Part shown: positions 63,074-63,148 of the stretch, one piece after another | Layout: every line of letters starts with the position of its first letter | Numbering within the stretch: the first letter of the stretch is position 1 | NCBI RefSeq assembly: GCF_044647545.1 | Contig: NZ_CP172818.1 | Source of the DNA: Escherichia coli | GTDB lineage: Bacteria > Pseudomonadota > Gammaproteobacteria > Enterobacterales > Enterobacteriaceae | DNA length: 64,000 nt | Direction: 5' to 3' (one strand) | Notes under the pieces: model-generated | The model's database searches: none | What the model saw: the letters and a program-made list of their open reading frames with translations, nothing else | Told to the model about the DNA's origin: nothing | Program-made: the position numbers and the translations under genes

Positions 63074-63148
63074 GGGTCGTTAGCTCAGTTGGTAGAGCAG
63101 TTGACTTTTAATCAATTGGTCGCAGGTTCGAACCTGCACGACCCACCA
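63074..63148 (+). tRNA. lysY: tRNA-Lys (UUU) variant, 75 nt, with a 1-nt deletion in the T-loop
   Basis: Same as the other Lys copies except ggttcgaacctgc in place of ggttcgaatcctgc. Confidence 0.8.

Follow-up and report, generated by a model that had tools for sequence, protein, structure and literature searches.

Does a lysine tRNA gene that lacks one base of its T-loop represent a genuine variant, or is the missing base a fault of the assembly that contains it? The question arose in a 64,000-nt stretch of Escherichia coli DNA (NCBI RefSeq assembly GCF_044647545.1, contig NZ_CP172818.1; hereafter the window). A first-pass annotation had reported that four of the five tRNA-Lys genes in one array are identical 76-mers and that the third, at 63074–63148, has 75 nt and a T-loop of 6 nt. 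It had proposed either a sequencing error or a variant tRNA gene that folds or is processed poorly.

The lysY gene and the compact lysT operon

Using ARAGORN, we detected seven tRNA genes at 62579–63381 in the order Lys, Val, Lys, Val, Lys, Lys, Lys, i.e., five tRNA-Lys(UUU) and two tRNA-Val(UAC) genes. The array sits between cpoB and nadA, and its gene order and its CC and CUC mini-spacers match those of the K-12 lysT operon, which identifies the affected copy as lysY. All genes of the array lie on the plus strand. The first, lysT (62579–62654), is a canonical 76-mer that is identical to the K-12 copy. It is followed by the lysT-valT spacer of 135 nt (62655–62789), an RtT-like repeat unit that belongs to repeat family D3 and ends in a remnant of a tRNA-Lys 3′ end (ATCCTGCACGACCCACCA at 62737–62754); the Rfam RtT match at 62586–62754 reached 60.6 bits at a threshold of 45 bits. 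Further downstream are valT (62790–62865, also recognized by Rfam), lysW (62868–62943), valZ (62995–63070), lysY (63074–63148), lysZ (63197–63272), and lysQ (63306–63381), of which lysW, lysZ, and lysQ are canonical 76-mers by ARAGORN and by alignment. The 3-nt spacer CTC that separates valZ from lysY has been described as CUC at the RNA level, and so has the operon terminator (PMC4176162). In the window, this Rho-independent terminator, AAAAAAGCGCC-CTAAA-GGCGCTTTTTT, can be read straight off the plus strand 3′ of lysQ (63386–63412). A promoter and terminator scan was uninformative in that it made no call for this clear terminator, probably because the stem, when extended through A/T pairs, takes in the T run.

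The alignment of the tRNA-Lys copies is unambiguous and, together with the ARAGORN calls, bears out the reported lengths of 76 nt for four copies and 75 nt for the third. The sole difference between lysY and the other Lys copies is a gap at column 60 (GGTTCGAA-CCTGC vs. GGTTCGAATCCTGC). The absent base is U60 in standard numbering, the last position of the T-loop, and the site lies between 63132 and 63133. Judged by the canonical tRNA-Lys(UUU) model (RF00005), lysY has the 7-bp acceptor stem, the D arm, the UUU anticodon arm, the 5-bp T stem, and an encoded CCA, but not the seven-membered T-loop (54–60) with its bulged pyrimidine 60. Its Rfam tRNA score is 74.4 bits, compared to 79.2 bits for the sister copies and a threshold of 29 bits, and in the model alignment one loop position is deleted while the rest is full-length.

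The array agrees with the K-12 lysT operon in its cpoB-nadA position, the Lys-Val-Lys-Val-Lys-Lys-Lys order, the two mini-spacers, the 135-nt lysT-valT spacer, and its single terminator, and the tRNA sequences are identical in six of the seven window genes. Two differences remain. K-12 has six Lys genes with one and the same sequence (PMC4176162), whereas lysY of the window is off by one base. In addition, three window spacers of 51, 48, and 33 nt correspond to K-12 spacers of 150, 147, and 133 nt, i.e., they are about 99–100 nt shorter, because three RtT-like units are missing. The same compact lysT operon is found in phylogroup-F/ST648-like E. coli (FDAARGOS_497, NZ_CP033850.1; ECONIH1; MS6198; 201609), which are identical to the window over 10.9 kb including all array spacers. 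Unlike the window, however, these genomes contain the T, and their lysY is a canonical 76-mer. Of 5,426 complete genomes, 163 cover at least 80% of a 3-kb query in one place, and we read these as carriers of the compact form. In itself, the locus offers nothing new: it is the compact version of the well-studied lysT operon.

Rarity and position of the lysY deletion

The first-pass annotation had suggested a comparison with other strains, and this comparison showed that the T is present in related genomes and that the deletion is unique to the window. With the 75-nt gene as a query, we retrieved 32,017 tRNA-Lys copies from 5,425 complete E. coli genomes, none of which, whatever its place in the genome, shows the lysY deletion; the best match to lysY was 75/76 in every record. 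When 5,428 records of complete E. coli genomes were searched with a 71-nt query that joins the deletion to the unique downstream spacer, none matched exactly. In exact-pattern scans, the variant T arm, taken as a 24-mer, was absent from 100,044 GTDB species representatives and from JGI metagenome contigs. At the same time, the 10,894 nt from 53107 to 64000 are identical to FDAARGOS_497 apart from the lysY T. Since no searched genome contains a matching copy and the surrounding DNA is otherwise identical, the lysY deletion is a singleton.

The searches also showed that complete E. coli genomes contain 2 to 11 tRNA-Lys copies (median 6). A single genome among the 5,426 lacked a match even to the universal tRNA-Lys gene and could be an odd assembly.

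We used 201609 (NZ_CP048107.1) and FDAARGOS_497 (NZ_CP033850.1), both of phylogroup F, as F-type comparison genomes and compared the array of the window with its F-type and MG1655 counterparts in a three-way alignment. MG1655 has a 99-nt RtT-like unit after lysW, lysY, and lysZ, whereas the F-type genomes lack all three units. Direct repeats of 18 nt with the sequence ATCCTGCACGACCCACCA flank each unit; the left one is the 3′ end of the preceding tRNA and starts inside the T-loop. This makes the lysY breakpoint ambiguous within the repeat. Compared to MG1655, the window is short by 100 nt and not by 99 nt after lysY, and the extra base is T60, directly at the edge of the gap. The missing-T site (63132–63133, plus strand) thus coincides with the edge of the 99-nt MG1655 unit. 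The breakpoints after lysW, lysZ, and lysQ are rendered exactly as in the F-type genomes.

The exact landing on an MG1655 breakpoint bears on the question of whether the base was lost through an ordinary stochastic sequencing or polishing error in the repeated tRNA array, independently of any reference-guided build. Polishing is difficult in repeated tRNA genes, and a single indel within 10.9 kb that contain no SNP looks more like an error than a mutation. However, one would not expect a random error to fall precisely on this breakpoint, nor five other private differences of the window (see below) to do likewise. Furthermore, the context is neither a homopolymer nor a known systematic-error motif, the other four tRNA-Lys copies are correct, scattered 1-nt indels are absent from the rest of the window, and all large ORFs are intact. 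We consider a random error of this kind highly unlikely. For the same reasons, i.e., the lack of scattered 1-nt indels, the intact large ORFs, and the four correct tRNA-Lys copies, we rejected an error-prone long-read assembly as the origin of the window as a whole.

Two sources of the window sequence

Long queries of 25 kb gave identities of just 95–98.8% to E. coli genomes, low values that result from ranking by coverage. When the window was instead compared block by block with the F-type genomes and with MG1655, it separated into two kinds of DNA. Four backbone blocks (1–13374, 21394–30186, 35552–47177, and 53107–64000; about 44.7 kb) are shared with the two F-type genomes, and we detected no private SNP against these genomes in the shared backbone. 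The ybgOPQD fimbrial block (30182–35422), which according to the annotation tables has no F-type counterpart, equals K-12 MG1655 without a difference. Likewise, the mngR-mngA-mngB block (47172–53110) is 100.000% identical to K-12 MG1655, whereas the F-type genomes have a hut/glm island instead. Among about 20 mngRAB loci, MG1655 is the sole perfect match, and each of the other A-type loci shows at least one difference. Exact protein look-ups with MngB, CydA, KdpB, Rhs, and YbgQ had provided loci for comparison and pointed to K-12. Neither the hut/glm island (about 22 kb) nor the TRAP-transporter cluster (8 kb) of the F-type genomes is present in the window. The transitions between the blocks fall exactly at the ends of F-type homology to MG1655.

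The rhsC locus (13375–21393) has a more complex composition. In the F-type genomes there is nothing between ybfA and ybgA. The window has an Rhs gene there (13480–17664; 1394 aa) whose DNA is 100% identical to an Rhs gene of the F-type strain DFL.5 (CP104843.1), but the match in DFL.5 sits at a different, distant locus beside the gene for ribosomal protein L31. This placement is as expected from paralogous reads mapped onto the reference rhsC. The segment at 17965–21393 is about 94% like MG1655 with many gaps and probably represents a mixture of paralogous H-repeat sequences.

The window differs from both F-type genomes at six sites (23354, 35551, 40736–45, 44979–84, 47174, and 63133), and all six lie at structural breakpoints between F-type DNA and MG1655, with none in the remaining roughly 44.7 kb. 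As well under 1% of the backbone is adjacent to a breakpoint, this distribution cannot be due to chance. At the first site (23352–23356, plus strand), the final codons of phrB have lost 4 nt, a private deletion located where MG1655 has 112 extra nt. It lies just before the stop codon, lengthens the ORF from 472 to 495 aa, and adjoins a 12-bp terminator hairpin; the resulting phrB 3′ end (23352–23434) is absent from all complete E. coli genomes, with a best match of 71/75. In gltA (citrate synthase; ORF 35506–36795, minus strand), K-12 and F-type DNA are joined at the border of the ybg block that equals MG1655, and a 1-nt deletion in this chimeric join (35551–35554) frameshifts the last 13 codons and alters the conserved C-terminus of GltA. 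No complete E. coli genome contains a full-length exact match to this gltA 3′ sequence.

Two further sites affect intergenic hairpins on the plus strand. The sdhB-sucA hairpin (40730–40751) is garbled at 40736–40745, where MG1655 has 131 nt and the window 11, and the sucB-sucC hairpin (44969–44995) has a loop that is 4 nt shorter, with 195 nt in MG1655 corresponding to 10 nt in the window (44977–44986). Both hairpins carry private shortened sequences (ATGTCGGGA and the loop GGGATGT, respectively) that differ from the F-type alleles and also from those of MG1655, which contain BIMEs. The remaining two sites are a 1-nt difference at 47174, at the edge of the mng block, and the lysY T at 63133 (plus strand), at the 99-nt MG1655 unit after lysY. 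Searches of 5,425 complete genomes with the phrB, gltA, lysY, and two intergenic alleles, i.e., with all sites except 47174, returned no full-length exact match; the four short queries to the variable phrB, gltA, and intergenic sites matched fewer genomes than the other queries.

Four of these private deletions lie in or beside hairpins, and we therefore considered hairpin-linked mutagenesis or a hairpin-linked sequencing artefact. This explanation has been superseded by the position at MG1655 breakpoints, which also covers gltA and the island-edge differences. The oddities in phrB, gltA, sdhB-sucA, and sucB-sucC appear to be artefacts of the same kind as the lysY deletion.

The sequence of the window is partitioned between two sources, and its private differences are co-located with MG1655 breakpoints. 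On the evidence of these alignments, the window is a chimera of an ST648-like phylogroup-F backbone and MG1655 blocks. A Shigella or divergent Escherichia origin was rejected, as the backbone matches ST648-like genomes at 100% and the islands match MG1655. We also rejected a natural recombinant mosaic, as the transitions fall at exact homology ends, the flanks are never reference-like, and the joins contain small deletions, including the gltA frameshift. In the window, segments that are absent from the lineage equal the reference, lineage-specific islands are missing, and private differences are confined to breakpoints, a pattern that is the signature of a reference-guided consensus on MG1655. 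Genomes with reference bias, whether mapping-based or reference-polished, show the same features: uncovered reference is kept verbatim, strain islands are missing, paralogous sequence appears at a reference locus, and small errors cluster at structural breakpoints. Here, we infer the method from the sequence pattern.

Taken together, these data argue that the T missing from lysY is very probably an artefact of a reference-guided reconstruction on MG1655 and not a variant tRNA. Reads or contigs of a phylogroup-F (ST648-like) isolate would have been placed on the K-12 MG1655 chromosome. Covered positions would then have taken the sequence of the isolate, uncovered reference segments would have stayed MG1655, and isolate-specific sequence would have been dropped. 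The isolate would lack the 99-nt unit between lysY and lysZ, and at the ambiguous breakpoint the consensus may have been cut by 100 nt for 99 nt, with the loss of T60. Three observations speak against this account. The three neighbouring breakpoints of the array are correct, so the method is not always wrong, and the lost base is the one whose deletion perfects a palindrome in the T arm, as a genuine template switch would also have it (see below). In addition, scattered indels are absent from the window, so the sequence is accurate away from breakpoints.

With respect to the two possibilities raised by the first-pass annotation, the error branch holds, although the cause would be a mis-resolved breakpoint and not a base-calling slip; the real-variant branch has become unlikely, given that the site is an MG1655 breakpoint and that the allele is unseen elsewhere. 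In the organism, lysY is most likely normal and 76 nt long, as it is in every related genome, and the deletion would have no biological consequence. The gene content at rhsC, ybgOPQD, and mngRAB would not be that of the sequenced strain. Other features of the window should be regarded as unreliable and should be checked against its hybrid nature before they are interpreted.

The T arm as a hypothetical real allele: predicted structure and palindrome

A genuine lysY allele without U60 would represent a natural case of a bacterial elongator tRNA gene whose T-loop has six members, or 4 nt by the predicted fold. The 6-nt loop described in the first-pass annotation is what the covariance-model alignment shows, whereas the thermodynamic fold differs: the T arm of the variant is predicted as a 6-bp stem with a 4-nt loop, formed through a U54-A59 pair. 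This pair has a probability of 0.854 in the variant, compared to 0.015 in the wildtype. The predicted fold energies are −29.8 kcal/mol for the lysY variant and −28.6 kcal/mol for the wildtype tRNA, i.e., the variant is slightly more stable. This suggests that any defect would lie in tertiary structure and enzyme recognition and not in secondary folding. Loss of U60 would abolish the reverse-Hoogsteen geometry of U54-A58. Y60 and N59 touch the D-loop, TrmA requires a 5-bp stem and a seven-membered loop, and the TruB substrate motif is 53-GUUYRANYC-61 (PMC7912444). In the variant, the bulged Y60 and the contacts of N59 to the D-loop would be lost, and the loop would no longer have the seven members that TrmA requires.

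RNase P measures from the tRNA elbow (PMC4919913), and the separation of valZ and lysY across the CUC spacer depends on this enzyme alone and not on RNase E (PMC4176162). A polar effect of the variant on valZ is conceivable, since only RNase P cleavage at the 5′ end of lysY frees valZ. If the deletion were real, the lysY transcript might block the RNase P-dependent release of the upstream valZ from the polycistronic precursor. The lysY gene itself would yield a tRNA-Lys that is hypomorphic or dead, and the other five copies, all identical, would buffer the defect.

Such an allele could have arisen by a quasipalindrome template switch during replication, in which one arm of the inverted repeat in the T arm serves as template for the nascent strand, so that a perfect palindrome results. 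Mutations of this type are reportedly associated with the work of Ripley in 1982 and with the Lovett laboratory. The lysY T arm (63122–63137, plus strand) has the corresponding form, as the deletion converts the imperfect inverted repeat GCAGGTTCGAATCCTGC, a 17-mer, into the perfect 16-nt palindrome GCAGGTTCGAACCTGC and so raises the complementarity of a pre-existing inverted repeat. Of the 17 single-base deletions that the T arm allows, the observed one alone yields a perfect palindrome. Template-switch mutations are known to make quasipalindromes perfect or more perfect (PMC7202029). The non-homopolymer context and the four correct copies in the same assembly would also fit a real mutation.

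Despite this resemblance, we consider a real allele improbable. Its site coincides exactly with the MG1655-specific 99-nt breakpoint, and it is one of six private differences that all lie at breakpoints, with none in the other roughly 44.7 kb. The allele is unseen in the 32,017 tRNA-Lys copies, and the complementary +A variant, which would also perfect the palindrome, is absent from 32,012 copies, which argues against a mutational hotspot. Because the −T and +A perfecting variants are both absent from about 32,000 copies, we rejected a quasipalindrome hotspot. The lysY site is like the known template-switch mutations in that an imperfect inverted repeat is made perfect, and unlike them in that it is an assembly breakpoint without recurrence in these copies. 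The likeness is probably accidental: the palindrome-perfecting property follows from the position of the breakpoint and is most simply a coincidence.

Perfect palindromes of 18 nt also occur elsewhere in the window, at 4632–4649 (TACAGGCATATGCCTGTA) and at 47147–47164 (GGCCATCATATGATGGCC). The latter closely precedes the left edge of the MG1655-identical mng block and is located downstream of sucD, in the region in which MG1655 has its annotated small RNA SdhX.
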